Origin: Escherichia phage tootiki
Sequence record: MN850647.1
DNA length: 64,000 bases
Reading direction: 5' to 3' (one strand)
Positions 14,836-54,699 of this stretch are shown piece after piece. Numbering within the stretch: the first letter of the stretch is position 1; each line of letters starts with the position of its first letter. The position numbers and the translations under genes were made by a program. The notes beneath the pieces are model-generated. The model had not been told where the DNA came from, made no database searches, and saw nothing but the letters and a program-made list of their open reading frames with translations.

Positions 14836-14839
14836 AAAT

Positions 14840-14932
14840 TGGAGGAAGATACCAGACTTGAACTGGTACACCGATTTCTCAGCTACTGGCAGTTTAGCAA
14901 ACTGCTCCCTTACCTTTTAGGGTTAATCTTCC
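14840..14932 (-). tRNA. tRNA-Ser (anticodon GCT), class II
   Basis: acceptor GGAAGAT/ATCTTCC, anticodon loop TTGCTAA, long variable arm, T-arm ACCAG-TTCAAGT-CTGGT. Confidence 0.65.
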
Positions 14933-14933
14933 A

Positions 14934-15668
14934 TTATTTCTGTAATGCGTTCTTCATTTCTGGTGTTGCAATAGTGTCAATCACACCAGTTTTACAAGCA
15001 TCGTCAAACCAGTCTGGTAAGATACCTGCTAAGAACCCATTGATATTCGTTTTAAGGTACTCTGCAATAAGGGCAGCTTCTTCTTCAATCATCTGCACAA
15101 CTTCATCTGCATAAGCTGTAATCTTTGAAATACCTTCATTAATTTTACTGACAGCTTGGTTAGCTAAATCAGAAACAGTGTCAAGACCCTTATCAATAGC
15201 GTCTTGTAAGTCACTTAACACACCGTTAACACTGTCTAGTGTGCTGTTAATCATGTCAATAGCTTGCTGACCATACTCTGTAGCAACACCCATAATACCA
15301 CTAAATGGTGTACAACCAACTTGTTCTCCTGCTGCACCCATAACATTGGAGTATCCCTTTGCTACCTGCATACGTGATGAAAACTCATCAATAGACTTTT
15401 GACCGTAGTCTGTTAGGGTCTTAGTAGTCGCTGTAGTGCTTGTAAGGCTTGTTGTAAAGCTGTTTAGAAGGACTGTTGTAAGTCCAGCAGCAACAAGTTT
15501 CTCCTTCATTGTAGGGTCTGTTACAGAGCTAATAGAGCTTACAAGTGATGTAGAGGCAGCTACGGTTCCACCGAGAACTGCTGCACCAGTAATAAGTGGG
15601 TTAGAAAACCCTTTACCGGTTTTTAAGAGATTAAAAATCTCCTTACCTTGTTCTGTCATCTCTTTCAT
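14934..15668 (-). CDS. hypothetical Ala/Ser/Thr-rich protein
   Basis: ORF track start at 15731 overlaps tRNA-Phe; start moved to internal ATG at 15668 (MKEMTEQ). Confidence 0.4.
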   Translation of the reverse strand: MKEMTEQGKEIFNLLKTGKGFSNPLITGAAVLGGTVAASTSLVSSISSVTDPTMKEKLVAAGLTTVLLNSFTTSLTSTTATTKTLTDYGQKSIDEFSSRMQVAKGYSNVMGAAGEQVGCTPFSGIMGVATEYGQQAIDMINSTLDSVNGVLSDLQDAIDKGLDTVSDLANQAVSKINEGISKITAYADEVVQMIEEEAALIAEYLKTNINGFLAGILPDWFDDACKTGVIDTIATPEMKNALQK

Positions 15669-15686
15669 TAAGCACCTTTGAAATTG

Positions 15687-15761
15687 GTAGTCCAGTGGGA
15701 TTTGAACCCTCTTCTCATGTTTTTCAGACACGCGCTTTAACCATATAAGCTACTTGGACTA
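15687..15761 (-). tRNA. tRNA-Phe (anticodon GAA)
   Basis: acceptor TAGTCCA/TGGACTA, anticodon stem CGTGT/ACATG loop CTGAAAA, T-loop TTCAAAT; D-arm weak. Confidence 0.55.
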
Positions 15762-15765
15762 TAAA

Positions 15766-15842
15766 TTGGGGTGACCTACGGGATTTGAACCCGTATAGAC
15801 CATGTTCACAGCATGGGTCATTACCATTTATGATAAGGCCAC
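15766..15842 (-). tRNA. tRNA-His (anticodon GTG)
   Basis: acceptor GTGGCCT/AGGTCAC, D-stem TCAT/ATGA, anticodon loop CTGTGAA, discriminator C, CCA encoded. Confidence 0.7.
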
Positions 15843-15873
15843 ATTTAAGGACTCTCGTAAGAACCCTTAGAAG

Positions 15874-15949
15874 TGGCAGCGGCATAAGGATTTGAACCTT
15901 AATAGGACAGCTTCAGAGACTGCTGCATTGCCAGTTATGCTATACCGCT
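15874..15949 (-). tRNA. tRNA-Gln (anticodon CTG)
   Basis: acceptor AGCGGTA/TGCCGCT, D-stem GCAT/ATGC, anticodon loop CTCTGAA, discriminator G. Confidence 0.65.
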
Positions 15950-15954
15950 AAAAT

Positions 15955-16033
15955 TGGTACTCCATATCGGATTCGAACCGATACATAACACAGATTTTAA
16001 GTCTGGCCTCTCTGCCAATTGGAGTAATGGAGC
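15955..16033 (-). tRNA. tRNA with Leu-type anticodon TAA, class-I length
   Basis: acceptor GCTCCAT/ATGGAGT, T-arm ATCGG-TTCGAAT-CCGAT, anticodon loop CTTAAAA, discriminator A; no long variable arm. Confidence 0.45.
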
Positions 16034-16035
16034 AT

Positions 16036-16111
16036 TGGCGGGGGATGTTGGAATTGAACCAACTTCTTCGATTTCAAAGACCGAGGTTTTAACCTTGTAA
16101 ACTAATCCCCT
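16036..16111 (-). tRNA. tRNA-Gln (anticodon TTG)
   Basis: acceptor with A1-C72 mismatch, D-stem GTTT/AAAC, anticodon stem TCGGT/ATCGA loop CTTTGAA, discriminator G. Confidence 0.6.
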
Positions 16112-16119
16112 TTAAATCT

Positions 16120-16677
16120 TTACTTTCTCAGTGGATGAATAAAGAATGCCAACATAACTCTTTCCCTTGAGAATGCTCTTTCTTCTGGGACAACACTTTT
16201 TAGTTTCCATCCAATATAAATTCTCCAGTAAAACTGTTTACCAAAGACTTTAATTGATGGGATAAAAGCGAATAACCCCCAAGCATTACTGTTCCACATT
16301 AGGAGATAGCCAGTCTGATTATCTTCAGGGTCAGAACTTACGTTGATATTACCTTTCCACTTAGTAACATCTTTTACATCTCTTCCTAATACATGGTAAG
16401 AGAAGTTATAAGCTTTGTTTCTCCAGAGCCATCCAACTCTCTGCATGTAGACACCCAGTTTACCAATCTTTCTAATCTTAGCCCATCTTTTGACGTGGCC
16501 TTCGTCACCATCAATCGGGTTGTCATAGGTCTCCATCCATCTGAATCCAAAAGGCAGATGTCCCTTCTTCTCACTGTAGAATGGAACTACGAAAGGTGCT
16601 AAGATGACTGCTAGGGTTGCTGCAAATGGTTCTAGTAAAGCTAGGAAAATCCATGAAGCATACTTCAAATATCTCAT
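16120..16677 (-). CDS. hypothetical membrane protein
   Basis: 185 aa ORF with hydrophobic N-terminus, embedded in tRNA array. Confidence 0.45.
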   Translation of the reverse strand: MRYLKYASWIFLALLEPFAATLAVILAPFVVPFYSEKKGHLPFGFRWMETYDNPIDGDEGHVKRWAKIRKIGKLGVYMQRVGWLWRNKAYNFSYHVLGRDVKDVTKWKGNINVSSDPEDNQTGYLLMWNSNAWGLFAFIPSIKVFGKQFYWRIYIGWKLKSVVPEERAFSRERVMLAFFIHPLRK

Positions 16678-16696
16678 CTAAATAGCCTCTTAAAAT

Positions 16697-16774
16697 TGGT
16701 GTTCCAAGACGGATTCGAACCGTCACTAATACAAGGTTTGAGCTTGCATCCTCTGCCAATTGGGATACTGGAAC
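16697..16774 (-). tRNA. tRNA with Leu-type anticodon CAA, class-I length
   Basis: acceptor GTTCCAG/TTGGAAC, T-arm GACGG-TTCGAAT-CCGTC, anticodon stem GCAAG/CTTGT loop CTCAAAC, discriminator A. Confidence 0.45.
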
Positions 16775-16775
16775 A

Positions 16776-16850
16776 TGGTACTCACTAAAGGACTTGAACC
16801 TTTTTCTTCATCTTGTAAGGGTGGTGTTTTACCATATAAACTAAGCGAGT
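16776..16850 (-). tRNA. tRNA-like, anticodon position reads TAC (Val) but anticodon stem poorly paired
   Basis: good acceptor, D-arm GTTT/AAAC and T-arm AAAGG-TTCAAGT-CCTTT; anticodon stem only 3 of 5 pairs. Confidence 0.4.
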
Positions 16851-16945
16851 GTGAAAGAGGTCTTAAGTTGTGCCGCTAACTCAACTCCGTGGAATTTGTT
16901 ACGGTCTTCAGTTGACACCAGCGGTCTTTCACTTGACCTCTGAAT

Positions 16946-17022
16946 TGGTGCTGCTCACAGGACTCGAACCTGCATTTCCATCCTTACAAGGGATGTGTAA
17001 TAGCCAATTATACGAAAGCAGC
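16946..17022 (-). tRNA. tRNA-Thr (anticodon TGT)
   Basis: anticodon stem CATCC/GGATG loop CTTGTAA, T-arm GCAGG-TTCGAGT-CCTGT, discriminator A. Confidence 0.7.
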
Positions 17023-17029
17023 ATTAATT

Positions 17030-17104
17030 TGGAGCATCCAGAGGGAATCGAACCCTCAACCTCAGTTTGGAAGACTGTAATTTTCCCGTTTAAACTATGG
17101 ATGC
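17030..17104 (-). tRNA. tRNA-Gly (anticodon TCC)
   Basis: acceptor GCATCCA/TGGATGC, anticodon loop CTTCCAA, T-arm GAGGG-TTCGATT-CCCTC, discriminator T. Confidence 0.65.
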
Positions 17105-17110
17105 ACTAAT

Positions 17111-17186
17111 TGGTGGAGAAGCAGGGAATTGAACCCTGTACTTAAGTTTGCAAAACTTATGTTTTAACCATGTAAACTACATCCCC
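17111..17186 (-). tRNA. tRNA-Ala (anticodon TGC)
   Basis: D-stem GTTT/AAAC, anticodon stem TAAGT/ACTTA loop TTTGCAA, T-arm CAGGG-TTCAATT-CCCTG, discriminator A. Confidence 0.7.
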
Positions 17187-17192
17187 AATATC

Positions 17193-17268
17193 TGGTACAG
17201 GTGGAGGGAATTGAACCCATCGTCTTACTGATTAAGAGTCAGCCGCATAACCATTTTGCTACACCTGC
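17193..17268 (-). tRNA. tRNA-Lys (anticodon CTT)
   Basis: acceptor GCAGGTG/CACCTGT, anticodon loop CTCTTAA; T-stem ATGGG/CCCTC imperfect, same as tRNA-Lys(TTT). Confidence 0.55.
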
Positions 17269-17275
17269 ATTAATT

Positions 17276-17353
17276 TGGTAGGAGACAAGGGATTCGAACC
17301 CTCAAACATCTCGTTCTAAGCGAGATAGGTTTACCAATTACCGTCAATCTCCC
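17276..17353 (-). tRNA. tRNA with Leu-type anticodon TAG, class-I length
   Basis: anticodon stem ATCTCG/CGAGAT perfect, loop CTTAGAA, T-arm GAGGG-TTCGAAT-CCCTT, discriminator A; no long variable arm. Confidence 0.5.
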
Positions 17354-17432
17354 ATTAAATCTTTTTAGAGAACTTCTAAGAACCTAAGCAACAAGGTTCC
17401 ACAACAAGCTGTAATAACCTTAGAAGCCCTCT

Positions 17433-17452
17433 AAAAAGACCTAAAAAGGTCT
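17433..17452 (-). terminator. intrinsic terminator-like hairpin inside tRNA array
   Basis: minus strand AGACC-TTTTTA-GGTCT followed by TTTT. Confidence 0.4.
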
Positions 17453-17611
17453 TTGCATAGTCTTGTTTAATCCGGTGACTATAACCTTTGGAGAGCTTGA
17501 TATTATCTCTTCTCCGTGACACCTACTAGGTGCTTTACTGTGCATGTACGACAATACACTAGGGATACCAAAGCAACATCCGAATGAAGCTTGGCTTTAA
17601 ATCTTATTAGG

Positions 17612-17699
17612 CGGTAAGTAAAGGAGTCGAACCCTCACCGTATCTCTACAGTGGCAACTGTTTTCAAGACAGTTTGGCTACCATTAGCCGCTACCTACC
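17612..17699 (-). tRNA. tRNA-Ser (anticodon TGA), class II
   Basis: acceptor GGTAGGT/ACTTACC, anticodon stem ACTGT/ACAGT loop CTTGAAA, 20 nt variable arm, discriminator G. Confidence 0.7.
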
Positions 17700-17717
17700 C
17701 CTAATAAGACTTTGGCA

Positions 17718-17795
17718 TGGGACGGAGGAGTTGAACCACTTTGAAACGGTTTTGGAGGCCGTTGCTCATGCCTTAGAGTCTTAACATCGTCCCAC
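17718..17795 (-). tRNA. tRNA-like; possible Trp (anticodon CCA) with enlarged D-loop
   Basis: acceptor GTGGGAC/GTCCCAT plus G73 and encoded CCA, T-loop TTCAACT; core does not fold canonically. Confidence 0.35.
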
Positions 17796-17932
17796 ACTAT
17801 AATTCGAAGCTTACCGTATTTTCACAACACTGTAAAGCCCCTTCTCAGATTATTTACATGTTCTGGAAAACATGAGATACAGACCACCTCCTTACAGGAA
17901 GACCCGCTTAGGTCGTCTAAGTAATCTGCTAA

Positions 17933-18280
17933 CTAATACTTTGCATGTCTTACCCTATGGCAATTTGAACATAGCAAAACACATTTGTCAAGTTCATCTT
18001 TTAGTTCTTGAGAGAACTTAAGGCTTTTCCTATGACCAATGTTAAAATCTTTATCTGAAGGATTCAAATGATGGAAGTCATACACTGCTGGATGATATTT
18101 CTTACCACAATCATGACAAACCCCACCTTTGTACTCAATAGCTGAGAGTTTAAGTGCTCTTTGTCTTTCTATGGTTTGCTCATTAACACACTTTTTACAG
18201 TATGAATGAGTTCTCCTACCATCTTTCATGTAGAAATCATTTTCATCCTTGCTAAGTTTGCACCTAATACAAGTTTTCAT
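17933..18280 (-). CDS. HNH endonuclease
   Basis: Cys pairs CIRCK and CKKC, HH-LNPSD-N motif, CSNCH; start moved to MKTCIRC because track start overlaps a tRNA. Confidence 0.7.
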   Translation of the reverse strand: MKTCIRCKLSKDENDFYMKDGRRTHSYCKKCVNEQTIERQRALKLSAIEYKGGVCHDCGKKYHPAVYDFHHLNPSDKDFNIGHRKSLKFSQELKDELDKCVLLCSNCHRVRHAKY

Positions 18281-18294
18281 GATTTCTCCAAAAT

Positions 18295-18376
18295 TGGTCG
18301 AGGCGGCAGGACTCGAACCCGCATACTCCACTTACTCGGTTAACGTCTGTTTAGAAGACAGATGAGATACGCCCCG
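18295..18376 (-). tRNA. tRNA-like; possible Arg (anticodon TCT) with atypical geometry
   Basis: acceptor CGGGGCG/CGCCTCG, T-arm GCGGG-TTCGAGT-CCTGC, CCA encoded; perfect hairpin TCTGT-CTTCTAA-ACAGA but no room for a D-arm. Confidence 0.35.
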
Positions 18377-18624
18377 TAATTATCTTTAAAGACTCTCTTA
18401 GAAAGCCCTTAAAGATGCCCACCTTATTAATCATACCGTGGGCTAGTACGCCAAATTCTTTGATGAGGGATTGGAAGACCTCACTGGTGTTTAGCCTATC
18501 AAGCTACTGCCAGAAAAACATTGTCGTTTGCATTTATTTTAAATTTGCAAAATAGACGCTACGCAACGAAAACTAAGGTTACTATAAAGTAGTCACATCT
18601 CAGTGTCAACAACTTTATTGAAAG

Positions 18625-18699
18625 TGGTTGTAGGTGAGGGTATCGAACCCTCTTCTAACGGTTATCAGCCGTTTGCATTACCATTTATGCTAACCCACA
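18625..18699 (-). tRNA. tRNA-Ile (anticodon GAT)
   Basis: D-stem GCAT/ATGC, anticodon stem AACGG/CCGTT loop CTGATAA, T-arm GAGGG-TTCGATA-CCCTC, discriminator A. Confidence 0.7.
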
Positions 18700-18701
18700 A
18701 T

Positions 18702-18778
18702 TGGAGGTTCAGGTGGGATTCAAACCCACATTCATAGGGCTTATGAAACCCTTGCATTACCTTATCTGCGACTGAACC
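18702..18778 (-). tRNA. tRNA-Met (anticodon CAT)
   Basis: acceptor GGTTCAG/CTGAACC, anticodon stem AAGGG/GCCCT loop TTCATAA, T-arm GTGGG-TTTGAAT-CCCAC. Confidence 0.65.
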
Positions 18779-18783
18779 ATTTT

Positions 18784-18859
18784 TGGTAGAAGTGGAGGGA
18801 TTCGAACCCATCGCCTGTCAGATTAAAAGTCTGCCGCATCACCATTCTGCTACACTTCC
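18784..18859 (-). tRNA. tRNA-Lys (anticodon TTT)
   Basis: acceptor GGAAGTG/CACTTCT, anticodon loop CTTTTAA, discriminator A; T-stem ATGGG/CCCTC imperfect. Confidence 0.55.
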
Positions 18860-19010
18860 ATTAAATCATCTTTGCAGTAACCTACGCAGACCTTGCTAAA
18901 GGGTCTGTAGAGTCATTTCATATTAAGCTAATCTAGAATCATACTAAGGAAATTCATCGGCACTCATGGGACGACATAATTAGCCACATAAGCTACTGCA
19001 AAGATAATTA

Positions 19011-19141
19011 CCAGACCGTTGTTTATCATCTTAAGTGCTACCATTACACCAACTCGACCTCTGCCGAGTGAAGGAATCGAACCTTCGCCTTTTCTTTACC
19101 GAGAAATAGATTGTTTAAGTTTTGCTGTAAACGGTCTTCTG
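19011..19141 (-). ncRNA. structured spacer module a: terminal inverted repeat enclosing a tRNA-like T-arm and D-arm-like segment
   Basis: minus strand CAGAAGACCG...CGGTCTGG ends pair; internal GAAGG-TTCGATT-CCTTC and AGTTGGTGTAATGGTAGCAC; no anticodon arm. Confidence 0.4.
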
Positions 19142-19154
19142 TAAATTTGTTGAG

Positions 19155-19230
19155 CCAGACCAAGTTTTAAATTTTTCAAAATTGAATTGGCTTGAAAATA
19201 TCATACATTCTTGCTGTATTTGGTCTTCTG
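19155..19230 (-). repeat. spacer module b (CCAGACCA...TGGTCTTCTG inverted-repeat unit)
   Basis: same terminal inverted repeat as module a. Confidence 0.4.
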
Positions 19231-19291
19231 CTCCTTTAAAGAATACTCGTAAGAACTCTTTAAGGGAGGGGCTAAATAGCCCTCTCAAAAT

Positions 19292-19368
19292 TGGCGGCTA
19301 CGATGAGACTTGAACTCAAATCATCTCCCGTGACAGGGGAGTATTTTCTCCAGTTAAACTACATAGCC
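19292..19368 (-). tRNA. tRNA-Asp (anticodon GTC)
   Basis: anticodon stem CTCCC/GGGAG loop CTGTCAC, acceptor GGCTATG/CGTAGCC, discriminator G. Confidence 0.7.
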
Positions 19369-19373
19369 TTTAT

Positions 19374-19461
19374 TGGTGTGCCGTGTAGGAGTCGAACCTA
19401 CCGAGTCTCAATGACAAGGGATTTACAGTCCCCACCGCTACCATCTACGGGATAACGACAC
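19374..19461 (-). tRNA. tRNA-Tyr (anticodon GTA), class II
   Basis: T-arm GTAGG-TTCGACT-CCTAC, anticodon loop CTGTAAA, about 15 nt variable arm, discriminator A. Confidence 0.7.
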
Positions 19462-19469
19462 ATTTAATT

Positions 19470-19546
19470 TGGCGGTTAGTCAGGGATTCGAACCCTGTGC
19501 CATTCGCTTAACAGGCGACCGCACATACCTTATGTGCTTCCTAACC
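19470..19546 (-). tRNA. tRNA-Asn (anticodon GTT)
   Basis: D-stem GCAC/GTGC, anticodon loop CTGTTAA, T-arm CAGGG-TTCGAAT-CCCTG, discriminator G. Confidence 0.65.
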
Positions 19547-19557
19547 TTAATACATTG

Positions 19558-19618
19558 CCAGACCGTGTTTTTTCTTTTATCCGCAAAAAAGTATTTTGTT
19601 GCTGAATACGGTCTTCTG
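19558..19618 (-). repeat. spacer module c (CCAGACCG...CGGTCTTCTG inverted-repeat unit)
   Basis: same terminal inverted repeat; internal GCAA/TTGC hairpin. Confidence 0.4.
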
Positions 19619-19624
19619 CAAAAT

Positions 19625-19701
19625 TGGAGGCGGGTGCAGGAGTCGAACCTGCCGATACCATGCTAATGAGACATGTGAGACGCCCTTTCTCTATACCCGC
19701 A
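19625..19701 (-). tRNA. tRNA-Met (anticodon CAT), second copy with 1-72 mismatch
   Basis: T-arm GCAGG-TTCGACT-CCTGC, D-stem GAGA/TCTC, anticodon stem CATGT/GCATG loop CTCATTA; T1-C72 unpaired. Confidence 0.55.
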
Positions 19702-19712
19702 ATTCTCAATGA

Positions 19713-19784
19713 CCAGACCAAATATCTTCTTTGTCCGATTTCGTGTCAGATGAGTAGATTAAGTTTGCTGTAATTGGTCTTCTG
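19713..19784 (-). repeat. spacer module d (CCAGACCA...TGGTCTTCTG inverted-repeat unit)
   Basis: same terminal inverted repeat as modules a-c. Confidence 0.4.
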
Positions 19785-19791
19785 TCAAAAC

Positions 19792-19869
19792 TGGCGTTCC
19801 AGAAGGGATTTGAACCCTCAGATATCCACTTTGAAAGAGTGGTGACTTTACCATTTTGTCTACTGGAAC
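19792..19869 (-). tRNA. tRNA-Glu (anticodon TTC)
   Basis: acceptor GTTCCAG/CTGGAAC, anticodon stem CCACT/AGTGG loop CTTTCAA, discriminator G. Confidence 0.7.
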
Positions 19870-19876
19870 ATTAATT

Positions 19877-19953
19877 TGGTCTCTGTTGGAGGACTTGAAC
19901 CTCCGGCCTTACCGCCCCAAACGGAATGCTCTACCAAGCTGAGCTAAACAGAG
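19877..19953 (-). tRNA. tRNA-Pro (anticodon TGG)
   Basis: acceptor CTCTGTT/AACAGAG, D-stem GCTC/GAGC, anticodon loop TTTGGGG, T-arm GGAGG-TTCAAGT-CCTCC. Confidence 0.65.
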
Positions 19954-29192: not shown

Positions 29193-29200
29193 AATATCTT

Positions 29201-29232
29201 AAGAGCCTCCTTAATTGGGGGCTTTTTAATTT
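29201..29232 (+). terminator. intrinsic terminator at end of plus-strand island
   Basis: AGCCTCC-N7-GGGGGCT hairpin followed by TTTTTAATTTTT. Confidence 0.55.
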
Positions 29233-30348
29233 TTATAAAATTTTATCGGTTGTCCCAACCTCTGGGTCACCATCATATGTGAATAAAATATCTACCCTTC
29301 TTAACAACCTTCTTAATCTTACTCTCTATATAGTTATATAGTACTATATAGTATCTTAGTAACTATCTAGTGGTCTTAATAGCCCTCTGTATAGCCCTTC
29401 TAAATAGCCTTCTAAACACTCTTCTAACAAGCCCTCTTAACCACCTATACAATCACCTTAACCATCCCTCTACACCCTCTTAGAAGCTCCTATACACCTC
29501 TTAATCTCTAGGTTAGCTATGGCACTCTCTATAGGTGTTCACTAGGTAATACTAAGCCTCTATATAGACTGTTTTAACAAACTTAACAGGAATATCTTTA
29601 CAGACCTTACCTCACAAGGTCTAACACGGTACTAACAAGGTATCTTGTAAGCCTGTTTCTACCTGTATTTTTAAAAGACTGTATAGGTAATTATTCAGAA
29701 TTTTAAAATTTTTATAAAATAGGACTATCAAGTCATTTTTTAGGGTCTTTGAAGGAACTGAAAAATATCTGTCTAGGATGTATATCTGCTTGGTAGCCCT
29801 TAACAGCTCCCTTACAAGTACTTTGCAAAATTTTAAAATATCCTTAACAATCTCTTAACAGTTCTCACATCTTCTTAACAACTCTTCAAAGGTCTTAACA
29901 GATTCTTAACAGAACTAACAAGGCTGTAACAGTTTCTTAACAGTTGATACATAATCTTTACAGAGGCTTAACAGATGACTAACAAGAGCTAACAAGTTAA
30001 TTTTAAAGAGTTATTTTGTTAAGATTATTAACAAGTTTCTAACAAGTCTTTAATCTTTTTAACAAGCTATTAACATGGTCACTATCTCTTTCTTATCGTT
30101 CCCTTTCCTTTCTTAGTGATTCTTTAAACATACCTCTTAAAAGCTCTCTATAGCTCTTTATAAGCTCTTTTAAGTCTCTTCCTAGTAGTTACACCCCAAC
30201 TGTACAGATAGCTCTCTATAGGGCTTTACAGGAGCTTTTAAGGCTATGTCAAAGACTCTTACAAGGCTTTTACGTGGTCTTAACAGAGATTTAACAAGGG
30301 GCTAACAAGTTGCTAACAAGTGTCTTAAAAGCATAACTATGTAGGGAT

Positions 30349-30380
30349 TGTTAAGAAATTGTTAAGAAAATGTTAAGGGG
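30349..30380. repeat. three inverted-orientation iterons (TTGTTAAG)
   Basis: TTGTTAAGAAATTGTTAAGAAAATGTTAAGGG; reverse complement of the upstream TAACA iteron. Confidence 0.6.
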
Positions 30381-30393
30381 GCTAGTATTTACG

Positions 30394-30443
30394 TAACTTT
30401 TAAGCTACTTCAAAATAACTTTTAAGCTACTTCAAAATAACTT
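30394..30443. repeat. 23 bp perfect tandem direct repeat (2 copies)
   Basis: AACTTTTAAGCTACTTCAAAATA repeated back to back. Confidence 0.7.
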
Positions 30444-30767
30444 TATAGCCCCCTTCTTAGATATTCACAAGATAACTAATGAGATGATAAAGCTTACACC
30501 CTTATAAGATTCTTTTAAGGCTCTGGGAAGCTTTATAAAGGGCTTTTAATGGTGAGGTAATGCAATCCCTTAAGTTAGGTTAATAAGGTCGTTATAGGGC
30601 TTTATAGAGCGTTTAAATGGTTGCCCTTCCCTTTCGGGTTATGGGCTTATATTTAAGTTGATTTGATAAGGGGCTATAGAGTAAGCTATAGAGTTATTGT
30701 TTTTTAAGGTCTGATAAGATTCTGGAAAGGAAAGGGAAAGGGTTGTATAAGGGATTTGATAAGACGT

Positions 30768-30790
30768 AAAAAAGCCCCATATAAAGGGGC
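30768..30790 (-). terminator. intrinsic terminator after minus-strand small-gene block
   Basis: minus strand GCCCC-TTTATAT-GGGGC followed by TTTTTT. Confidence 0.55.
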
Positions 30791-30829
30791 TGTAAAGGTA
30801 TCTGGGGCTATTTAGCCCCGTTGCGGCGT

Positions 30830-36842: not shown

Positions 36843-37628
36843 TTAGTTCTTTGCGTCTAAGAAGGTAACTTCTGGTGAAGAGAAAACTGTCTCGATATCC
36901 TCATCAGTTCTTGCATAGATATAAGTATCTGCATCACTGCCAAATGTTACTGCAATCCTGTGATTGCTCTTCGACAGGTGGGTAACTAGAGCGTTACTCA
37001 GAGACATCTTTTCAACCGGAGGGTTACTTTGATGTATCTTACCTTTTCTTCGTCTGAAGAGGGTAACTGCGTTATCTGTGAACACTGCTACACCTGCAAA
37101 GTATTCTGGTTCACAGTAGTTCTTCCAACCTGAGCGTAACTTGTGGTACATCTCTCCTTCGTAGACATAAAGATACACATCTACACTCTTCATCACCTGA
37201 TTAATGATAACTGTGACGGCTTGAGGGTCTAGCCCACCGATACCTGCACCAATCATAGGTAAACCAACCTTCTTCAACTGGTTGACTTCACAGTATCTGT
37301 TAAGCTGCTTCAAAGATGACTCTAAAGCACTGTATCGGGCATCTTTACCAGTCTTAAGCTGAGTGTAAAGGTTAGCTATACGGCCTTGTTCTAAACGTGC
37401 TACAGAGAAATTACCCAGTAAATTTTCACAGGGTTTGTGACCTATACCACCTGCATAGAGGTAAACTTCTGTATCGGTCTCATATGCTTTTGGGTAAAGT
37501 TTAGAAATCTTGTCAGCGATACCTACACCCATTAAATTCATACAGTTGCAACCGTGACCAATAATATCAAACTTACCTTTATCAAATGCTGAGAAGATAT
37601 CCCCATTGATGATTTTTACAATACCCAT
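36843..37628 (-). CDS. macro-domain-like protein (ADP-ribose binding or hydrolase candidate)
   Basis: 261 aa; NGDIF, DIIGHGCNCMNLMGVGIA and LPMIGAGIGG resemble macro-domain GDIT, NAAN..GGGV and ISTG.YG motifs. Confidence 0.45.
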   Translation of the reverse strand: MGIVKIINGDIFSAFDKGKFDIIGHGCNCMNLMGVGIADKISKLYPKAYETDTEVYLYAGGIGHKPCENLLGNFSVARLEQGRIANLYTQLKTGKDARYSALESSLKQLNRYCEVNQLKKVGLPMIGAGIGGLDPQAVTVIINQVMKSVDVYLYVYEGEMYHKLRSGWKNYCEPEYFAGVAVFTDNAVTLFRRRKGKIHQSNPPVEKMSLSNALVTHLSKSNHRIAVTFGSDADTYIYARTDEDIETVFSSPEVTFLDAKN

Positions 37629-39999: not shown

Positions 40000-40884
40000 T
40001 TAGTTGTGAATAATTACTTCGTTAATATCTTTGCTTCTCTGTGCATGTATTGTGTATGAATGACTAACCTCTGTCAAGTTAAAATTTTCAGGAATTAGGT
40101 TTACCCATCCATCCCACTGAGAGTTTGACATCAAAACTTTAGAGCCTAACTCCCCCCAAGAAATCATATCTTCGCATAATTTTACAGACATCTCAATGTC
40201 AAACTTTGCACCATATTTCTGGTTGGTGTTGATATACGGGGGGTCACAGTAAATAACTGTGCCTTCTCCATGTTTTATGTCAACCCTGTCATAAGGTTCA
40301 CTGCTAAGTATTACCCTCTCATCGGTGATAAAACTGTAGAACTCAGACAGTGACTTCTTAGTTTTTGTGAAGAAAATCTCTTCTTCCAGCAAATACCCGC
40401 AAGGTGTTGCATAGTGACCTTTCATCTCTTTAGTAGTCTGCCATACACCACCAAAACTTAGTTTTTGAAGGAAAAACTGTCTGGCATAGTATCTGTAGTC
40501 ATATGCTCCCTCTTCACCAAGCAAAAGAAGTTCCTCTCTTACACTGTAATACATTTTATAGCGTAGACGGTTATGACGCTGACCTTTCACGGCATACTCT
40601 TCCTGCATAGGTAAGGCTAAGTACCTTTTTGACAAGTACTCAAATTCTTCCATGAAGTTTTCATAGTCATCTCTGAAAGTTGTGTAAAGACCTATAATAT
40701 GTTTATTTATCTCATTAATAAACACTTTTGCCTCTGGATATCTGTTATAAGCCCAGATAGCTACTGAACCACCACCTGAAAACAGGTCATAGAAGTTTTT
40801 ACAGTTGTCTGGAAAGACACCTAAACGCTCATATTCTTTCAGTATTCTTGTTTTACCACCAAGATACTTAAACATTGGTTTCAT
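40000..40884 (-). CDS. dam: DNA N6-adenine methyltransferase (Dam-like)
   Basis: FKYLGGK, LFSGGGSV (AdoMet motif I) and DPPY (motif IV). Confidence 0.75.
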   Translation of the reverse strand: MKPMFKYLGGKTRILKEYERLGVFPDNCKNFYDLFSGGGSVAIWAYNRYPEAKVFINEINKHIIGLYTTFRDDYENFMEEFEYLSKRYLALPMQEEYAVKGQRHNRLRYKMYYSVREELLLLGEEGAYDYRYYARQFFLQKLSFGGVWQTTKEMKGHYATPCGYLLEEEIFFTKTKKSLSEFYSFITDERVILSSEPYDRVDIKHGEGTVIYCDPPYINTNQKYGAKFDIEMSVKLCEDMISWGELGSKVLMSNSQWDGWVNLIPENFNLTEVSHSYTIHAQRSKDINEVIIHN

Positions 40885-46287: not shown

Positions 46288-46473
46288 AATACTTTCCTCT
46301 TAGTTTACTGTTAAATTACTTATTAAACATTTTACCAGAACCACCACAAATAGGGCAACAACCTGCTCTTGTATACCCTTCCCCGTTGCAGTAATCACAC
46401 TTCTTGCACTCTGCATAGTACTTGCAAAGAAGGTAAACAAATACTGCTACACTACCAAGTGATAGTAAAATTT

Positions 46474-46809
46474 CTATCCAATATGCTTGCATGACTCACC
46501 TCTCATGTTTTTGTAAAGGATAAAGCTTCTGTCATGAATGATACTTGTAGATACTGCAAAGTTACTTTCAAGCATCTGTTTGTTTGGATTGTAGAAGCTT
46601 TTTTTAAACTCGTCAAGCGCAAACTGGTGATGTTGTGGAAGACCTTTTACACAAACCTTTATTGTGATTGCTGCTGCAACCTTTCCAGTCAGTTCTTCTT
46701 TAGCTGCTACTAAAATTTTGTTAAGAAACTTATGGCCATCTTCAGGCTTATTGATGTTCTCCCAACGTTCTTCTAAGACAATGTTGATGTTCATCTCTTT
46801 GATTTTCAT
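46474..46809 (-). CDS. hypothetical protein
   Basis: 111 aa. Confidence 0.45.
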   Translation of the reverse strand: MKIKEMNINIVLEERWENINKPEDGHKFLNKILVAAKEELTGKVAAAITIKVCVKGLPQHHQFALDEFKKSFYNPNKQMLESNFAVSTSIIHDRSFILYKNMRGESCKHIG

Positions 46810-46826
46810 AGTTTTCTCCAGAAATT

Positions 46827-46848
46827 AAAAAGGCTCCCGTAGGAGCCT
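46827..46848 (-). terminator. intrinsic terminator (GGCTCC family)
   Basis: minus strand AGGCTCCTACGGGAGCC followed by TTTTT. Confidence 0.6.
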
Positions 46849-46862
46849 CTTATCATATACTT

Positions 46863-48644
46863 TTAAAGCTGCTTGTCAATATTATTTCGAATATCACCAA
46901 GAGTTGTGTAACCAAACTGCTCAGAGTCACTAAAGACTAAACGTAAAGCACAAGCTGGGTGGTCAAGTACATCTGCAAAACTCTGGAATCCGTAGCCATC
47001 TACAGCTTTCAACTTATCACCATCCCACATAGGCGCTACACCACCAAAGGCAGATTTCTTAACACCACTATCTGTTTTAGGGTCTTTTGCAAGCATAATC
47101 TCTTTGCCACCAATGCTTGCAAGAGTTGCTTTGACAGCAAATGCAAAGGTGTCACGAGTCATGTACTGGTAAGTGTAAGAGCCTACACCAAACACCACGT
47201 TAGAGCTTGCAAACCCCATTTCATACAGACGCTTCAGGATTTCGTTTGCACGTTCCAGCGTGATAGAGTCACCATAGATAAGTCCGATATGCTCATCCAG
47301 TACCTTAAACCCTTTAGAGTTAATAGTTCCCCCAAAAATGTTGTACAGTGTCTTAATAGCTCCATCAATCTCAGCTACAGGACGTGTTACAACGTTTGCA
47401 GAACCAACCATATAAGCATTTTTCAACATCACTGTATCAGCAACTTCAAAGTCTTCTCTGTCAACAACCATTTCGTAGCCTTCTGACAGTAGCCATCCAG
47501 CAATACCATAGTTGATATTTTCAAGCTTCATGTTCAGAACAGCATTCAACATTGTGTCACTGGCTTCCAGCTTGCTTAGGTGCTCGTAATAAGCCTTTTT
47601 AGCACACTCTAAGTGGATTGCTTTATAACCTGTGACAATATGTACAGGGTCTCCAGAGTCAGGACGAATTACCAGTTTGCCATCACGTTCCATAATTTCT
47701 TTACGAAGTGCTGGTAAAATTTCTGACACAGTTCTCCAGAAGTTATAAGTGTCTGAAACAACACTTGCAATACCAGTTGGGTAAGTTTCTGTTAAGAAAC
47801 GACGGAAGGTTTGTAACTCACCTTTAAAGCGTCTTTCTTCTTCAATCAACTCATTACCACCTTCCCAAGCAATGTTTGCACACATTACAGAGTGCTCAGT
47901 GGCTGGTACAGAGCTACCAATATCAGAGATTGGGTAGGACTGTCCATAGATTCGTTTAGCCGTATACACAGCAGGGAAGCTATCAGTTCCTTTAAAGCTG
48001 GTTAAGTGGCCTACAGCGTTAAATGCGTCATCAGTAAAGCCGGACATACCACGCATAGCAAAGTCATGGCACTGATAAGGCAAATGCAAGTCGTTGTCAC
48101 AAGTAAGGTCAGTCCACTTCTTACAGATACGTTTGTAGTGCAATGCAATAGTTGCAATGGTACAAGCCTTCCAAATCTCAGCAGAGAAAGCATCTTCCAG
48201 ATACCCCGCTACCCAATGGAAGCCTGAAACAGTGTTCTGGAAGACAATCATTGGGACGCGCATAGGGACAACTGTACCTTCTTCTACAGCGTATACTTCA
48301 ACTGGTAGATAACCTAAGTCGTGAAGTGCTTCCCAGTGCTCTCGACCGATAGCATCTTTACCCAGAACACCATTCATGACTTCTAAGATTTCATCAATGG
48401 CTTCTTTTTTATCACGTTCAAAGAAAGTGGCGTTCCAGTGGTCTATCAAGTAATCTTTAACGAAACGTTGAATACCAAAAGCCACTACACCGTCAATTGC
48501 CAAAGGGCTGTTAAACCATTTATCACTACGTGGTGTCAGGTTCAACATAAGATATTGCGTAGCATCTGGATACTGATATATATGTGATGCCTTGTAAGCA
48601 TCTGCATTAAGACCTGCTGGTACTGCGTAAAGTGATTTAGTCAT
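46863..48644 (-). CDS. nadV: nicotinamide phosphoribosyltransferase (NadV/NAMPT-like)
   Basis: 593 aa; N-terminal NADAYKASHIYQYP matches NAMPT DSYKVTHYKQYP signature. Confidence 0.65.
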   Translation of the reverse strand: MTKSLYAVPAGLNADAYKASHIYQYPDATQYLMLNLTPRSDKWFNSPLAIDGVVAFGIQRFVKDYLIDHWNATFFERDKKEAIDEILEVMNGVLGKDAIGREHWEALHDLGYLPVEVYAVEEGTVVPMRVPMIVFQNTVSGFHWVAGYLEDAFSAEIWKACTIATIALHYKRICKKWTDLTCDNDLHLPYQCHDFAMRGMSGFTDDAFNAVGHLTSFKGTDSFPAVYTAKRIYGQSYPISDIGSSVPATEHSVMCANIAWEGGNELIEEERRFKGELQTFRRFLTETYPTGIASVVSDTYNFWRTVSEILPALRKEIMERDGKLVIRPDSGDPVHIVTGYKAIHLECAKKAYYEHLSKLEASDTMLNAVLNMKLENINYGIAGWLLSEGYEMVVDREDFEVADTVMLKNAYMVGSANVVTRPVAEIDGAIKTLYNIFGGTINSKGFKVLDEHIGLIYGDSITLERANEILKRLYEMGFASSNVVFGVGSYTYQYMTRDTFAFAVKATLASIGGKEIMLAKDPKTDSGVKKSAFGGVAPMWDGDKLKAVDGYGFQSFADVLDHPACALRLVFSDSEQFGYTTLGDIRNNIDKQL

Positions 48645-48689
48645 CTTTTAATCTCTCTCAAAGTGGGGCTTTCAAGCCCCTATAAAGTT

Positions 48690-49586
48690 TCAATCAATGG
48701 TTGCTACAGTAACTTGGGCGTAATGTGTTAAGCCACGGTCTTTAGCTTCACCTAAAGTGTTTGTAGTGTAGATATGGTCAATACCGTTGTCAAGTAAGTT
48801 TTCAACACCTTTAGAGAAAATACCATGAGTTACATAGAGTTCCACACGTTTTGCACCTGCTTCACGTAGGTGTTTAGCTGCCTCTACGAAGGTTCGACCA
48901 CCATCACAGATATCATCAAGAATCATGACAGTTTTATCGGTCAAATCAACATCGTCAAGGATTCGCATACCAGTGATTTCTCCAGTCTTAAGATTGCGCA
49001 CCTTAGACATTGTGATATACGGTTTATCCACCTCTTTAGCGGTATCTTCAGTCTTCTTAGCTGCACCTGCATCTGGGGCTACCAAGAAATCAATGCGTGG
49101 GTCACTTGCAAAGTGTACTGCCACATCTTTTTGCTTCATGCTTTGAAAGCACTTAAATAAGTTTTCTGCAACATTACTGTGAGGGTCAAGAGCACATACT
49201 GCATCAAAACCCATTACATTAACTAGGTTGGCAAAGACTTTCAGTGCTGCTGCATCACCTTTGAACATGTGGCGGTCATATCGAGCATTTGGTAAGAACC
49301 CGAAAACAACGGTTTTCATCGCTGATTTCTGGGGAACAAGACTGTCAACGGCATCCTTAGCCAAAGCTAATGCAAACAGTGTATCTTTGTCATATCCCTG
49401 TACAGTAATTATAACATTATCAATCTTACCAGCATTACGCTCAGTAAACTTAACAAAATCTTCAGAGAAGTTTCCACCAATTTCTCCAGATGGGAATTGA
49501 ATGATATTAAATTTTTCTGTGTGGAAGAATTTCTCTTGAGCGGTGACGACGGCTTCAATAACAGTTTTCATAGTTTTCTCTCTCAA
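48690..49586 (-). CDS. prs: ribose-phosphate pyrophosphokinase (PRPP synthetase)
   Basis: 298 aa; PRPP-binding loop MILDDICDGGRTF. Confidence 0.7.
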   Translation of the reverse strand: MREKTMKTVIEAVVTAQEKFFHTEKFNIIQFPSGEIGGNFSEDFVKFTERNAGKIDNVIITVQGYDKDTLFALALAKDAVDSLVPQKSAMKTVVFGFLPNARYDRHMFKGDAAALKVFANLVNVMGFDAVCALDPHSNVAENLFKCFQSMKQKDVAVHFASDPRIDFLVAPDAGAAKKTEDTAKEVDKPYITMSKVRNLKTGEITGMRILDDVDLTDKTVMILDDICDGGRTFVEAAKHLREAGAKRVELYVTHGIFSKGVENLLDNGIDHIYTTNTLGEAKDRGLTHYAQVTVATID

Positions 49587-49861
49587 TCAAAAGTTACGTT
49601 TGTTACTGCCATTGCAGATTTGCATTTTGCAGGGTCTACAACGTGATAAAGTACACTACAGTTACCTGTGCTGTCTGGTACAGGCTTTACCCATTGCTGC
49701 TTTATATTTGGCTCCCCTAAGTCTTTGTAAGAGCCATCTGTAAAGTTGTTTACCATCTCAAGTGCAATTGGTTCTGGAACATGCCCACGTATCATGTACA
49801 TTTCACAACCATTACCGCCTTCACTGACTAATGGTAAAATCTCCCACTTCTCTTTAGCCAT
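49583..49861 (-). CDS. hypothetical protein
   Basis: 92 aa. Confidence 0.4.
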   Translation of the reverse strand: MAKEKWEILPLVSEGGNGCEMYMIRGHVPEPIALEMVNNFTDGSYKDLGEPNIKQQWVKPVPDSTGNCSVLYHVVDPAKCKSAMAVTNVTFD

Positions 49862-50369
49862 TGTAAGTTGCCCTATAAACTGTCTCGAACTTCAACAGGA
49901 GAGATATTGCCAAATCTGTATAGTTGTTGTCAAGCACATCTGGCATATTATTTTTGATATATTTCTCTTGCTCTTCATAGGTCATCTTAGGTGTGCTTAG
50001 AAGGTTATCTCCCTGCTTCTGGTTATCAAGTTTAGTCTGGATAAACCAGTTTGCACAGTGATGCTCACCACCCTTTGTAACAGGTTTGTGGTGGCCTAAT
50101 GTGAAGGATTGACTACCTGTGTATCTACAAAGCTTATTGAGCACTGCAATGGTGTTCTTCACAACAAAACATTCATACAGGTTATCTATAGTGTAGTGTG
50201 GGTAATAACGGAATAGTACTCTTTCACGAGTACTTTCACGATTCCAGAGAATCATGTGATTGGAGTTTGAGGGGTCGTATTGGTGGGAGTCAATGAACTC
50301 TTGACGTTCCTCAAAGCTAAGTCTTAACACTGACATTGCAGCAGAACGTTTTAGGTTTGACAGATACAT
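49854..50369 (-). CDS. hypothetical protein with HNH-like HHKP..GG..H..N segment
   Basis: LGHHKPVTKGGEHHCANW; incomplete HNH signature. Confidence 0.35.
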   Translation of the reverse strand: MYLSNLKRSAAMSVLRLSFEERQEFIDSHQYDPSNSNHMILWNRESTRERVLFRYYPHYTIDNLYECFVVKNTIAVLNKLCRYTGSQSFTLGHHKPVTKGGEHHCANWFIQTKLDNQKQGDNLLSTPKMTYEEQEKYIKNNMPDVLDNNYTDLAISLLLKFETVYRATYNG

Positions 50370-50420
50370 ATCATCTCCAAAATAAAAAGGGAACTGTAAA
50401 GGTTCCCTTATAGTATCTGT

Positions 50421-52554: not shown

Positions 52555-54699
52555 TTACATAGAAATCCTGTCACGAATCTCAGCGATTTTTGCATCATTC
52601 ATTCGGGATTCACCTTTAATCTTAGTCCATCCCAGATATCCGCACACCCTGTTAATCACAGAGATGTCATGTGAATGGCAAACCTCACATTCTTCAACAT
52701 CAGCCTTTGGTCTGTTACCACAATGTTCACAGATTGCTAAGTCAAAGTTAAGTCCCTGATAAAAACCCTTCAACATCCCTCTGGTAATACAACTTTTAAG
52801 TGCTGTTAAGTTTTCTGGGTTAGCTACCCTTACATACTGGATTCTACCACCTCTACAGATATGGAAGAAGGGTTCTTCTAAGTCCTGCTTCTCAAATGGT
52901 GTAATGTCTGCTGCAACATTCATATGGAAACTGTTTGTAAAGTATTCCTTGTCAGAAACGCCTTTGATAACGCCAAACATATCTCTGAACTGTTTTAGCT
53001 GAGTTCCACAAAGTGATTCTGCTGGAGTGCCATAGACTGCATATAAGAAGCCATCTTCATTTTTAAACTCTTCAGTCTTCATGTTGATATATTCCAGAAC
53101 ATCATATGCAAAACTACAGCTTCCAACTTCATGAAGTCGTTTACCTTCAGCAAGAACAGATAGCTCATCAAGCGCAGTAACCCCAAAAGAAGCTGTGAAG
53201 GACTTCACGATATCCCAGCCAACCTTGTCAGTAGGTTTCTTATTCCCTTTGTACAGGCCACCTTGTGTGAATGCAAGAGGGTTAGAACTTGCTGGCATAT
53301 TAGCAATCATTTCGTAACGTTTCTTGTGGAAGCTGCGAATCATTTCTAGGTACTTATCAAGCTCTTTCCAGAAATCTAAGTCATTCTCTTTAGAATACTG
53401 GTAAATCATTGGTAAGTTCAAAGATACAGCACCAATGTTAGCACGACCAACGTAGAACTCTTCCCCATTCTCGTTAAAATATGGAGATAAGAAGGCTCTG
53501 CAACCCATCGGTGAAATTACCTTACCAGAACGCTCAAAAGCCTCTGCTACAGCACCATGTCCAGATACACTTAAGAAATCTGGATACATAGCTTTAGCGC
53601 AACACTCAATAGCTTTACTGTACAGGTGGCCTTGACAGATATTCTCATTATGTCTCTTCTGGTCATAAATATAAACCAGTTTAGGGAATACAACAGGCTT
53701 CTTGCTCTTACCTTGTCCATTCATACGAACATCTAGGAGAGTGCTTGCAATCATGTATTGCAGTCGGTTATCTTCATTAGACATATCTGAGTCAAGTAAC
53801 CCGAATGTCAAAGTTGTGAATGCAAAATCACCACGGCTACAAGGCACAGTATTGAGCTTCATTTCAAGAGACTGAAAACCTTGAGTTAATTCAATCTGTA
53901 GCTGCTCCATGACATAGTTGTGGTAATGTTCTTTAGGAATACCATAAGCTGTTGCTTTTTCAGCATGGTAACGTAGAGACTTCTTAGCATACGGTACAAG
54001 TACCTTATCAATCTCTGCTAAAGTAAAGCCACCAAATTGCTGTGCAGTTGCTGAAAGAACTACATCACCAATAACCTGTAAGGCTGACAGTACAGACTTC
54101 GGTTCACAGTATTCAATGCCAGACATTTCAAAGCCACCTTTCAGCACTTTACCAATGTCAAACAAGCAACAGTTGATACCACCAAAAATCAGGTCTCTTA
54201 AATCATGGATATAGATAAACCCTTTTTCAATGGCTTCAAGTTCCTCTGGTGTTAGGTGGTACTGTTTAAAGATTTCTTTAGTCAGGTAACCACGAATAAT
54301 TGAGCCTTTTGTAGAAATTAAACTGCTGTCAAAATTAGCGTTTTCTCGGTCACCTAAGAAGAGTGTATCTTTGGTCTTCTGGTAGAGTTCATCCCAATTT
54401 TGAGCAACCTCTTTACGGTAATTTCTATATGTTGAGTAAGACTCATAAATCTCGTGATTGACTTCTGCCAAAGCACCTTCAACAATACTGTGAATATCAT
54501 TTACTGAAATGAGTAAATTATTCTGCTTAGTAGATTTTACCAGAATCCTCATAAATGCTGACTCAAGAGCTTGGGTAACATCTGGTGGAAGTTCTTTATA
54601 CCCAACCCTATTAGCTGACTTTGAGACTGCTGCTAAAACTTTTTTGATATCAGGTTCTTCGAGTGAGCCATTCTTTTTAATAATCTGTACTTTGTTCAT
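52555..54699 (-). CDS. nrdD: anaerobic ribonucleoside-triphosphate reductase
   Basis: 714 aa; C-terminal glycyl-radical motif RVCGYLG and Cys-rich zinc site CEHCG...CEVCH. Confidence 0.85.
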   Translation of the reverse strand: MNKVQIIKKNGSLEEPDIKKVLAAVSKSANRVGYKELPPDVTQALESAFMRILVKSTKQNNLLISVNDIHSIVEGALAEVNHEIYESYSTYRNYRKEVAQNWDELYQKTKDTLFLGDRENANFDSSLISTKGSIIRGYLTKEIFKQYHLTPEELEAIEKGFIYIHDLRDLIFGGINCCLFDIGKVLKGGFEMSGIEYCEPKSVLSALQVIGDVVLSATAQQFGGFTLAEIDKVLVPYAKKSLRYHAEKATAYGIPKEHYHNYVMEQLQIELTQGFQSLEMKLNTVPCSRGDFAFTTLTFGLLDSDMSNEDNRLQYMIASTLLDVRMNGQGKSKKPVVFPKLVYIYDQKRHNENICQGHLYSKAIECCAKAMYPDFLSVSGHGAVAEAFERSGKVISPMGCRAFLSPYFNENGEEFYVGRANIGAVSLNLPMIYQYSKENDLDFWKELDKYLEMIRSFHKKRYEMIANMPASSNPLAFTQGGLYKGNKKPTDKVGWDIVKSFTASFGVTALDELSVLAEGKRLHEVGSCSFAYDVLEYINMKTEEFKNEDGFLYAVYGTPAESLCGTQLKQFRDMFGVIKGVSDKEYFTNSFHMNVAADITPFEKQDLEEPFFHICRGGRIQYVRVANPENLTALKSCITRGMLKGFYQGLNFDLAICEHCGNRPKADVEECEVCHSHDISVINRVCGYLGWTKIKGESRMNDAKIAEIRDRISM

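Follow-up and report, generated by a model that had tools for sequence, protein, structure and literature searches.

A gene pair of Escherichia phage tootiki that very probably forms a NARP1 operon against NAD+-depleting immunity

Background

NARP1, a phage system that counters immunity depleting nicotinamide adenine dinucleotide (NAD+), was discovered in the operon formed by genes 79-80 of phage Bas63, also named JohannRWettstein (Osterman et al., bioRxiv 10.1101/2024.02.11.579819). Here we analyze a stretch of 64,000 nucleotides of Escherichia phage tootiki (sequence record MN850647.1; hereafter the window), and in particular two adjacent genes at positions 46863-49586. An original prediction, made from the sequence alone, had read them as an NAD+ salvage pair composed of a NadV-like enzyme and a phosphoribosyl pyrophosphate (PRPP) synthetase, and as a candidate counter-defence. 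We are highly confident that the two genes, adps and namat, constitute the NARP1 operon of a Felixounavirus. Such a system has been described before under this name; the proposed counter-defence role is right and the observation is confirmed.

The role of the Bas63 operon is documented by several lines of evidence. In cells with the SIR2-HerA defence, deletion of genes 79-80 lowered the plating of Bas63 approximately 20-fold, and the wild-type phage partly rescued NAD+ levels (bioRxiv 10.1101/2024.02.11.579819). Overall, NARP1 neutralizes type I Thoeris, DSR1, DSR2, SIR2-HerA and SEFIR (bioRxiv 10.1101/2024.02.11.579819). Its discoverers started from the same Pfam domains that are found in the window (PF14572 in one protein, PF18127 and PF04095 in the other) and from the hypothesis of a route through PRPP and nicotinamide mononucleotide (NMN), which they then rejected: Bas63 remained able to overcome SIR2-HerA in a host of genotype ΔpncC ΔnadR, and untargeted mass spectrometry detected the pyrophosphate of ADP-ribose (ADPR), ADPR-PP, solely in the presence of the operon together with the defence (bioRxiv 10.1101/2024.02.11.579819). 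Purified Adps of phage SpβL1 converted ADPR and ATP into ADPR-PP and gave no product in a control reaction, the substrate of which is ribose-5-phosphate in the figure legend and PRPP in the text; purified SpβL1 Namat formed NAD+ from ADPR-PP and nicotinamide (bioRxiv 10.1101/2024.02.11.579819).

A later study showed the structural basis of the ADPR-PP selectivity of SpβL1 Namat (PMC12774641). The enzyme strongly prefers ADPR-PP, and retains some PRPP-dependent synthesis of NMN in vitro when ADPR-PP is absent (PMC12774641). What distinguishes Namat from Nampt is a 'selectivity clamp' stacking on the adenine of ADPR-PP, which is composed of the SCH helix, with consensus GSXΦXΦXΦTRD, and of a variable loop, SCL; the latter contributes an arginine (Arg40 in SpβL1) or, in Bas63, a lysine followed by a stacking residue (PMC12774641).

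Not all NAD+-depleting defences leave a substrate for these enzymes. Cleavage of NAD+ by the RES-domain defence proteins (aRES) yields ADPR-1''-phosphate, a product that NARP1 is unable to use, and around 15% of NARP1 operons embed a Poa1p-like Macro-domain phosphatase, Adpp, that restores the substrate; this three-gene form is NARP1-AP (bioRxiv 10.64898/2026.01.28.702374). A further pathway, NARP2, is represented by Vibrio phage KVP40, and no phage was found to carry both NARP1 and NARP2 (bioRxiv 10.1101/2024.02.11.579819).

Results and discussion

The gene pair and its match to Bas63

Both open reading frames (ORFs) are present on the minus strand, at 48690-49586 (298 amino acids, aa) and 46863-48644 (593 aa). 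They correspond to the following genes:

48690-49571, minus strand: adps, predicted ADP-ribose pyrophosphokinase (Prs-like), 293 aa (298 aa when read from TTG 49586), identified by identity to Bas63 gp79, PHROG 619 and Pfam.
46863-48644, minus strand: namat, predicted nicotinamide ADP-ribose transferase (Nampt-like), 593 aa, identified by identity to Bas63 gp80, PDB 9w5w/9w5x and contact residues.

The peptides that had been taken as family signatures are found where they were reported. The product of the 593-aa ORF starts with MTKSLYAVPAGLNADAYKASHIYQYP and carries DAYKASHIYQYP at aa 15-26, while MILDDICDGGRTF lies within the 298-aa product. The family matches of both proteins are far beyond chance in Pfam, NCBIfam and PHROG. 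The 593-aa protein matches NAPRTase (PF04095, E=5.9e-35) and NAMPT_N (PF18127), the NCBIfam model NF006629 (E=1.3e-140, 469 bits with a cut-off of 405) and PHROG 448 (E=1.9e-201). The 298-aa protein matches Pribosyltran (PF00156) and Pribosyl_synth (PF14572), passes the broad subfamily model TIGR01251 of NCBIfam (E=3.2e-40, 137.9 bits with a cut-off of 113) and belongs to PHROG 619 (E=4.9e-99).

The comparison with Bas63 carries the identification. In that phage, the window pair corresponds in position to bas63_0079 ('ribose-phosphate pyrophosphokinase') and bas63_0080 ('nicotinamide phosphoribosyltransferase'), and the operon region is 96% identical at the DNA level. Adps is identical to Bas63 gp79 at 290 out of 293 residues (99%) and Namat to gp80 at 581 out of 593 (98%). 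The substitutions, three in Adps and 12 in Namat, are conservative and none of them falls on a mapped functional residue. Gene order, strand, Pfam domains, genus and neighbors (the NrdG side upstream and rIIA downstream) are also shared, and the two loci differ by these substitutions and by an extra gene in Bas63, bas63_0081. Through this identity of 98-99% and the published data on Bas63, the counter-defence role proposed for the pair is borne out.

The length of 298 aa is the maximum, obtained by starting at the first possible TTG (49586); this codon overlaps the stop codon of the upstream gene. Reading from ATG 49571 gives 293 aa, the same length as in the Bas63 annotation. The purine tract GAGAGAG lies six bases 5' of this ATG, and the same tract precedes the ATG of namat. 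Because of the purine tract and of the Bas63 annotation, ATG 49571 rather than TTG 49586 is likely to be the true start of adps.

Sequence features of Namat and Adps

Namat forms a sub-branch of the NF006629 family, and its top PDB matches are 9w5w and 9w5x (E about 3e-128). These entries appear to be the crystal structures of SpβL1 Namat, and the residue numbering of 9w5x agrees with that of the published enzyme (D13, Y15; PMC12774641). We transferred the published SpβL1 contact residues to the window Namat through a HMMER alignment to 9w5x. All positions in contact with the nicotinamide, ribose, phosphate and adenine of the ligands are conserved or conservatively replaced (D15, Y17, F195, R198, D221, A248, R327, D329 and G458-D459-S460). 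The catalytic H251 and the essential R327, equivalent to R306 of SpβL1, are intact. Both elements of the clamp are also recognizable: the motif GSYTYQYMTRD at aa 488-498 (G488-S489-Y490...Y494...T496-R497-D498) corresponds to the SCH consensus, and the SCL reads SDKW at aa 40-43, where K42-W43 is the Lys-Trp pair of the Bas63 type. The adenine clamp argues for a preference of the window Namat for ADPR-PP.

The original label of a NAMPT/NadV-like enzyme thus stands only as a family match. The protein is predicted to be a Namat and no dedicated Nampt or NadV; the original prediction had reckoned with a different phosphoribosyltransferase as the outcome that would speak against it, and in this respect the protein is a different one.

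Five phage lineages share K190-x-R192, H131, R97/D99/R100 and D219-D220 of Adps without variation. In the alignment, K190 is matched to the catalytic lysine in the K-E-R of Prs, equivalent to K197 of Bacillus subtilis Prs, and it is this lysine that was mutated in the discovery study (bioRxiv 10.1101/2024.02.11.579819). The ribose-5-phosphate loop reads DGGRT, as opposed to DT-x-GT in Prs, and the protein fails all equivalog-level Prs models of NCBIfam, scoring 48-113 bits versus cut-offs of 296-536. Bas63 gp79 was among the queries used to define the phage Adps clade (bioRxiv 10.1101/2024.02.11.579819), and by its near-identity to this protein the window Adps is placed in the same clade.

The comparison extends to more distant relatives. 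The NARP1 of Bacillus phage SpβL1 has the same two-enzyme logic, contact residues and SCH motif as the window; however, its Namat has about 490 aa and Arg40 in the SCL, whereas the window Namat has 593 aa, two insertions and Lys-Trp. The roughly 100 additional residues are mostly accounted for by one insertion of 84 aa, at which the HMMER alignment to 9w5x breaks (query aa 343/350) before restarting at aa 427; the second insertion comprises 15 aa near aa 258-272.

47364-47615, minus strand: coding region of the 84-aa insertion in Namat (aa 344-427), delimited by the split of the HMMER alignment to 9w5x.

This insertion is missing from the Namat of SpβL1 and of a Staphylococcus phage, and is not discussed in the structural paper (PMC12774641). 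In a multiple alignment, the Namats of several phages that infect Gram-negative bacteria have a variable segment of 55-95 aa at the same site. Cellular Prs and Nampt/NadV share folds and catalytic cores with the window pair (K-x-R and DD of Prs; catalytic His, RPDSG and GD of Nampt), but the substrates of the pair would be shifted to ADPR and ADPR-PP, and Nampt does not have the adenine selectivity clamp.

Proposed mechanism and points that weigh against it

Because of the near-identity and of the conservation of every functional residue, we infer that the window proteins act as the Bas63 and SpβL1 enzymes do. In the proposed mechanism, a SIR2, TIR or SEFIR effector of the host defence would cleave NAD+ into ADPR and nicotinamide. 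With ATP, Adps would then add pyrophosphate to the terminal ribose of ADPR, and Namat would couple the resulting ADPR-PP with nicotinamide, forming NAD+ in one step with release of pyrophosphate. Such a pathway would need neither PRPP nor NMN nor a host NMN adenylyltransferase (NMNAT), and would be complete with two enzymes. Since ADPR is scarce until a defence fires, it would be essentially silent in undefended cells.

Three points weigh against the identification of the pair as a functional NARP1 operon. First, enzymology and crystal structures were obtained on SpβL1 proteins; Bas63 Adps purified poorly, and the evidence for the Bas63 type is genetic and metabolomic (bioRxiv 10.1101/2024.02.11.579819). 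Second, the 84-aa insertion of the Felixounavirus Namat is lacking in the crystallized enzyme. Third, no promoter could be assigned to the operon, as sigma-70 sites are not enriched (28 compared to 23.9±4.5 in shuffled sequence).

A Macro-domain protein and a possible dispersed NARP1-AP

Vibrio phages Gary and Pontus carry NARP1-AP in the order Adps-Adpp-Namat, and their Adps and Namat are homologous to those of the window (PHROG 619 and 448). An Adpp inside the window operon was rejected, as Pfam found no Macro domain in the ORFs flanking it. A homologue is encoded about 9 kb away:

36843-37628, minus strand (the same as the operon): Macro-domain protein, 261 aa, candidate accessory, found by Pfam; orthologue of Bas63 gp95 ('putative phosphatase').

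This raises the possibility that Felixounaviruses run NARP1-AP with its three enzymes dispersed, the Macro protein dephosphorylating ADPR-1''-phosphate to the ADPR that Adps and Namat would use. The window protein is in PHROG 335, as is the operon-embedded Macro protein of Pontus, to which it aligns across the whole domain with 27% identity. The Pontus protein, which is included in the published table of NARP1-AP, is a near-identical match of the validated Adpp of Gary (bioRxiv 10.64898/2026.01.28.702374). The histidine that was mutated to inactivate Adpp (H24A) is kept as H25 in the window protein and is invariant in 21 homologues. Because the published survey was confined to two genes around the operon, a dispersed arrangement would have escaped it; its list holds no Escherichia or Salmonella phage (bioRxiv 10.64898/2026.01.28.702374).

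Other observations speak against the dispersed arrangement. The Macro family is far broader than NARP1: in counts of records at the level of organisms, 998 Escherichia phage records have a Macro homologue and 191 a Namat-like gene, and the carriers of the former include T4-like phages. The protein has the DarG/TARG1/Poa1p-class fold, and its top structural matches are the macrodomains of DarG, which de-ADP-ribosylate DNA; for this reason, an anti-DarT role, or another role in de-ADP-ribosylation, appears equally plausible. While Adpp of Gary and Pontus has 158 aa and is embedded in the operon, the window protein has 261 aa and a distant gene, and the proposal does not account for its additional C-terminal domain, which is β-rich (about aa 175-261) and is found only in Felixounavirus-like relatives. 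Taken together, we consider a dispersed NARP1-AP in Felixounaviruses as a tentative extension of the two-gene system that is more probably wrong than right. If true, it would allow the Adps-Namat operon to defeat also the RES-type (aRES) NAD+ phosphorylases. As a weaker addition to the same proposal, the 84-aa insertion of Namat may serve in regulation or in substrate gating.

Salvage through PRPP and NMN, and metabolic boosting

The chemistry of the original prediction differs from that of NARP1. There, a Prs-like enzyme would form PRPP from ribose-5-phosphate, a NadV-like enzyme would join PRPP and nicotinamide into NMN, and host enzymes (NadR, or PncC followed by NadD/NadE) would complete NAD+. 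All the names returned by Pfam, NCBIfam and PHROG, which read Prs and Nampt/NAPRTase, agree with this route, as does the in vitro synthesis of NMN by Namat, which can draw on PRPP if there is no ADPR-PP (PMC12774641). However, it was tested and rejected for the Bas63 operon, which is 98-99% identical, by the outcome in the ΔpncC ΔnadR host and by the appearance of ADPR-PP only with operon and defence together. The SpβL1 enzymes contradict it as well, given the activity of Adps on ADPR and ATP, the lack of product in its control and the strong preference of Namat for ADPR-PP. To this, the window adds a Prs-like protein below every equivalog cut-off for Prs and with DGGRT in place of the Prs-type loop. 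We conclude that salvage through PRPP and NMN is very improbable for the window pair.

The pair had also been described as a partial pathway that relies on host NadD/NadR, as no NMNAT was recognized. The absence itself is confirmed: searching about 100 gene-like ORFs of the window with Pfam, we found no CTP_transf_like/NMNAT, Nudix or RyR (PF02026) domain. The suggested search of the neighboring genes for NMNAT or Nudix domains had the same negative outcome among these ORFs, and the annotation of the approximately 23 kb of the Bas63 genome that lie beyond the window lists no NAD-related gene. The description as partial does not hold, since the counter-defence of Bas63 persisted in the ΔpncC ΔnadR host; because NARP1 requires no NMNAT, the missing enzyme does not make the pathway partial.

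The same search disposes of three further candidates. A hidden complete NMN route is ruled out, as no gene-like ORF of the window has an NMNAT or Nudix domain. On the same ground NARP2 is excluded: the KVP40 system shares with the window a Nampt-family enzyme and the countering of NAD+ depletion, but it is composed of Nampt/NadV and the bifunctional NMNAT-Nudix protein NatV, works through PRPP and NMN and depends on an NMNAT encoded by the phage, whereas the partner in the window is the Prs-like Adps. A window devoid of NMNAT fits the published finding that NARP1 and NARP2 exclude each other. NARP1 assisted by RyDEP, a family with the RyR domain (bioRxiv 10.64898/2026.05.28.727677), is rejected as the window has no match to PF02026.

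A general metabolic booster, with the pair raising the supply of PRPP and pyridine nucleotides for phage nucleotide synthesis regardless of immunity, would suit an early-gene region rich in nucleotide-metabolism genes (NrdAB/NrdDG, thymidylate synthase, DHFR), but it is extremely improbable, as Bas63 gave no excess NAD+ in defence-free cells, its deletion phenotype was specific to SIR2-HerA hosts and the substrate ADPR is scarce where no defence has fired (bioRxiv 10.1101/2024.02.11.579819). In the published data there is neither impaired growth of the deletion phage on hosts free of defences nor a rise of PRPP pools in the course of infection.

Distribution and significance

Overall, 258 phage records match the region 46300-50400. 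Nearly all of them are Felixounavirus/FelixO1-like phages, with Escherichia, Salmonella, Shigella and Citrobacter as hosts, and the closest is phage momo (98.5%). The source phage is a Felixounavirus, that is a FelixO1-like myophage of E. coli/Salmonella. Approximately 230 Felixounavirus-type records carry most of the operon region. The order of adps followed by namat recurs in Erwinia Kolesnikvirus, Escherichia Vequintavirinae, Vibrio Thalassavirus and Staphylococcus Kayvirus phages. A copy of the Felixounavirus NARP1 region is also found in GenBank GU169904 ('Staphylococcus phage SA1'; positions 116182-120276, 94.6% nucleotide and 98% protein identity); the record looks like a chimeric or contaminated assembly, and the copy like no genuine gene of a Staphylococcus phage.

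As a discovery the window pair adds little: the Bas63 operon is the founding example of NARP1, and its action against SIR2-HerA, type I Thoeris, DSR1/2 and SEFIR has already been published. The work of Osterman et al. is reported to have appeared in Nature as well, in 2024. The case bears on annotation, as all standard libraries of hidden Markov models still assign the names 'ribose-phosphate pyrophosphokinase' and 'nicotinamide phosphoribosyltransferase' to the pair and steer readers to the refuted route through PRPP and NMN. It also bears on phage therapy. The approximately 230 records carry most of the operon region, and are therefore predicted to represent phages that resist NAD+-depleting defences yielding ADPR. 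The same phages are predicted not to resist aRES, except if the unlinked Macro protein acts as an Adpp.

Operon anatomy

The two genes are co-oriented, with adps first and a gap of 45 nucleotides before namat. Three hairpins were found in and around them:

48664-48680, minus strand: GC-rich intercistronic hairpin, GGGGCTT-GAA-AAGCCCC, in the adps-namat spacer, read from the sequence.
46828-46851, minus strand: intrinsic terminator-like hairpin followed by a T-run, 12 nucleotides past the namat stop, with a stem of 10 bp including 5 GC pairs.
50387-50409, minus strand: upstream terminator-like hairpin, before the genes for 171 and 92 aa, found by the terminator scan.

The intercistronic hairpin has no proper T-run and is absent from the terminator-like sites listed, so no terminator was called there; it may be an element of RNA stability or partial attenuation that sets the ratio of Adps to Namat. 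The other two hairpins possibly bracket a unit of four genes, composed of the 171-aa gene, the 92-aa gene, adps and namat. The small flanking genes (171, 92, 111 and 58 aa) were considered as NARP1 partners and rejected: BLASTP against the neighbors of the operon in four other lineages gave matches only within Ounavirinae, which indicates local synteny.

The extra gene of Bas63 (bas63_0081, 345 bp) lies just 3' of namat and is lacking in the window, where the corresponding site (46810-46862) falls between namat and the 111-aa gene. In phages LinBro and ekra, an HNH endonuclease is encoded in this neighborhood. The site looks like a hot spot of insertion and deletion beside the operon terminator.

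Other features of the window

Downstream of the operon lie rIIA/rIIB and upstream NrdD/NrdG. NrdD is a single uninterrupted ORF of 714 aa (52555-54699, minus strand). The Bas63 counterpart is annotated as two joined pieces around the homing-endonuclease gene bas63_0068, an intervening element that the window phage does not have. A D12-class N6-adenine DNA methyltransferase is encoded at 40000-40884 on the minus strand, and a SegE-like GIY-YIG endonuclease and a protein with a PRA-PH (MazG-like) pyrophosphohydrolase domain were detected within 42.7-64 kb. Structural genes fill the first 14 kb of the window and are followed by a tRNA cluster:

14760-19953, minus strand: 24 tRNA genes in a cluster, as is typical of FelixO1-like phages.

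The strand-switch region includes a 1.6-kb stretch free of ORFs (29200-30800), which is likewise unannotated in Bas63 and has no match in Rfam. Iteron-like CTTAACAR repeats are concentrated there: 14 of the 27 matches in the window fall within 29300-30366, when about 10 would be expected over all 64 kb. Spacings of 11, 20 or 31 nucleotides separate the direct copies, and inverted copies occur at 30348-30366. The stretch may serve as an origin of replication or as an array of sites for a binding protein.

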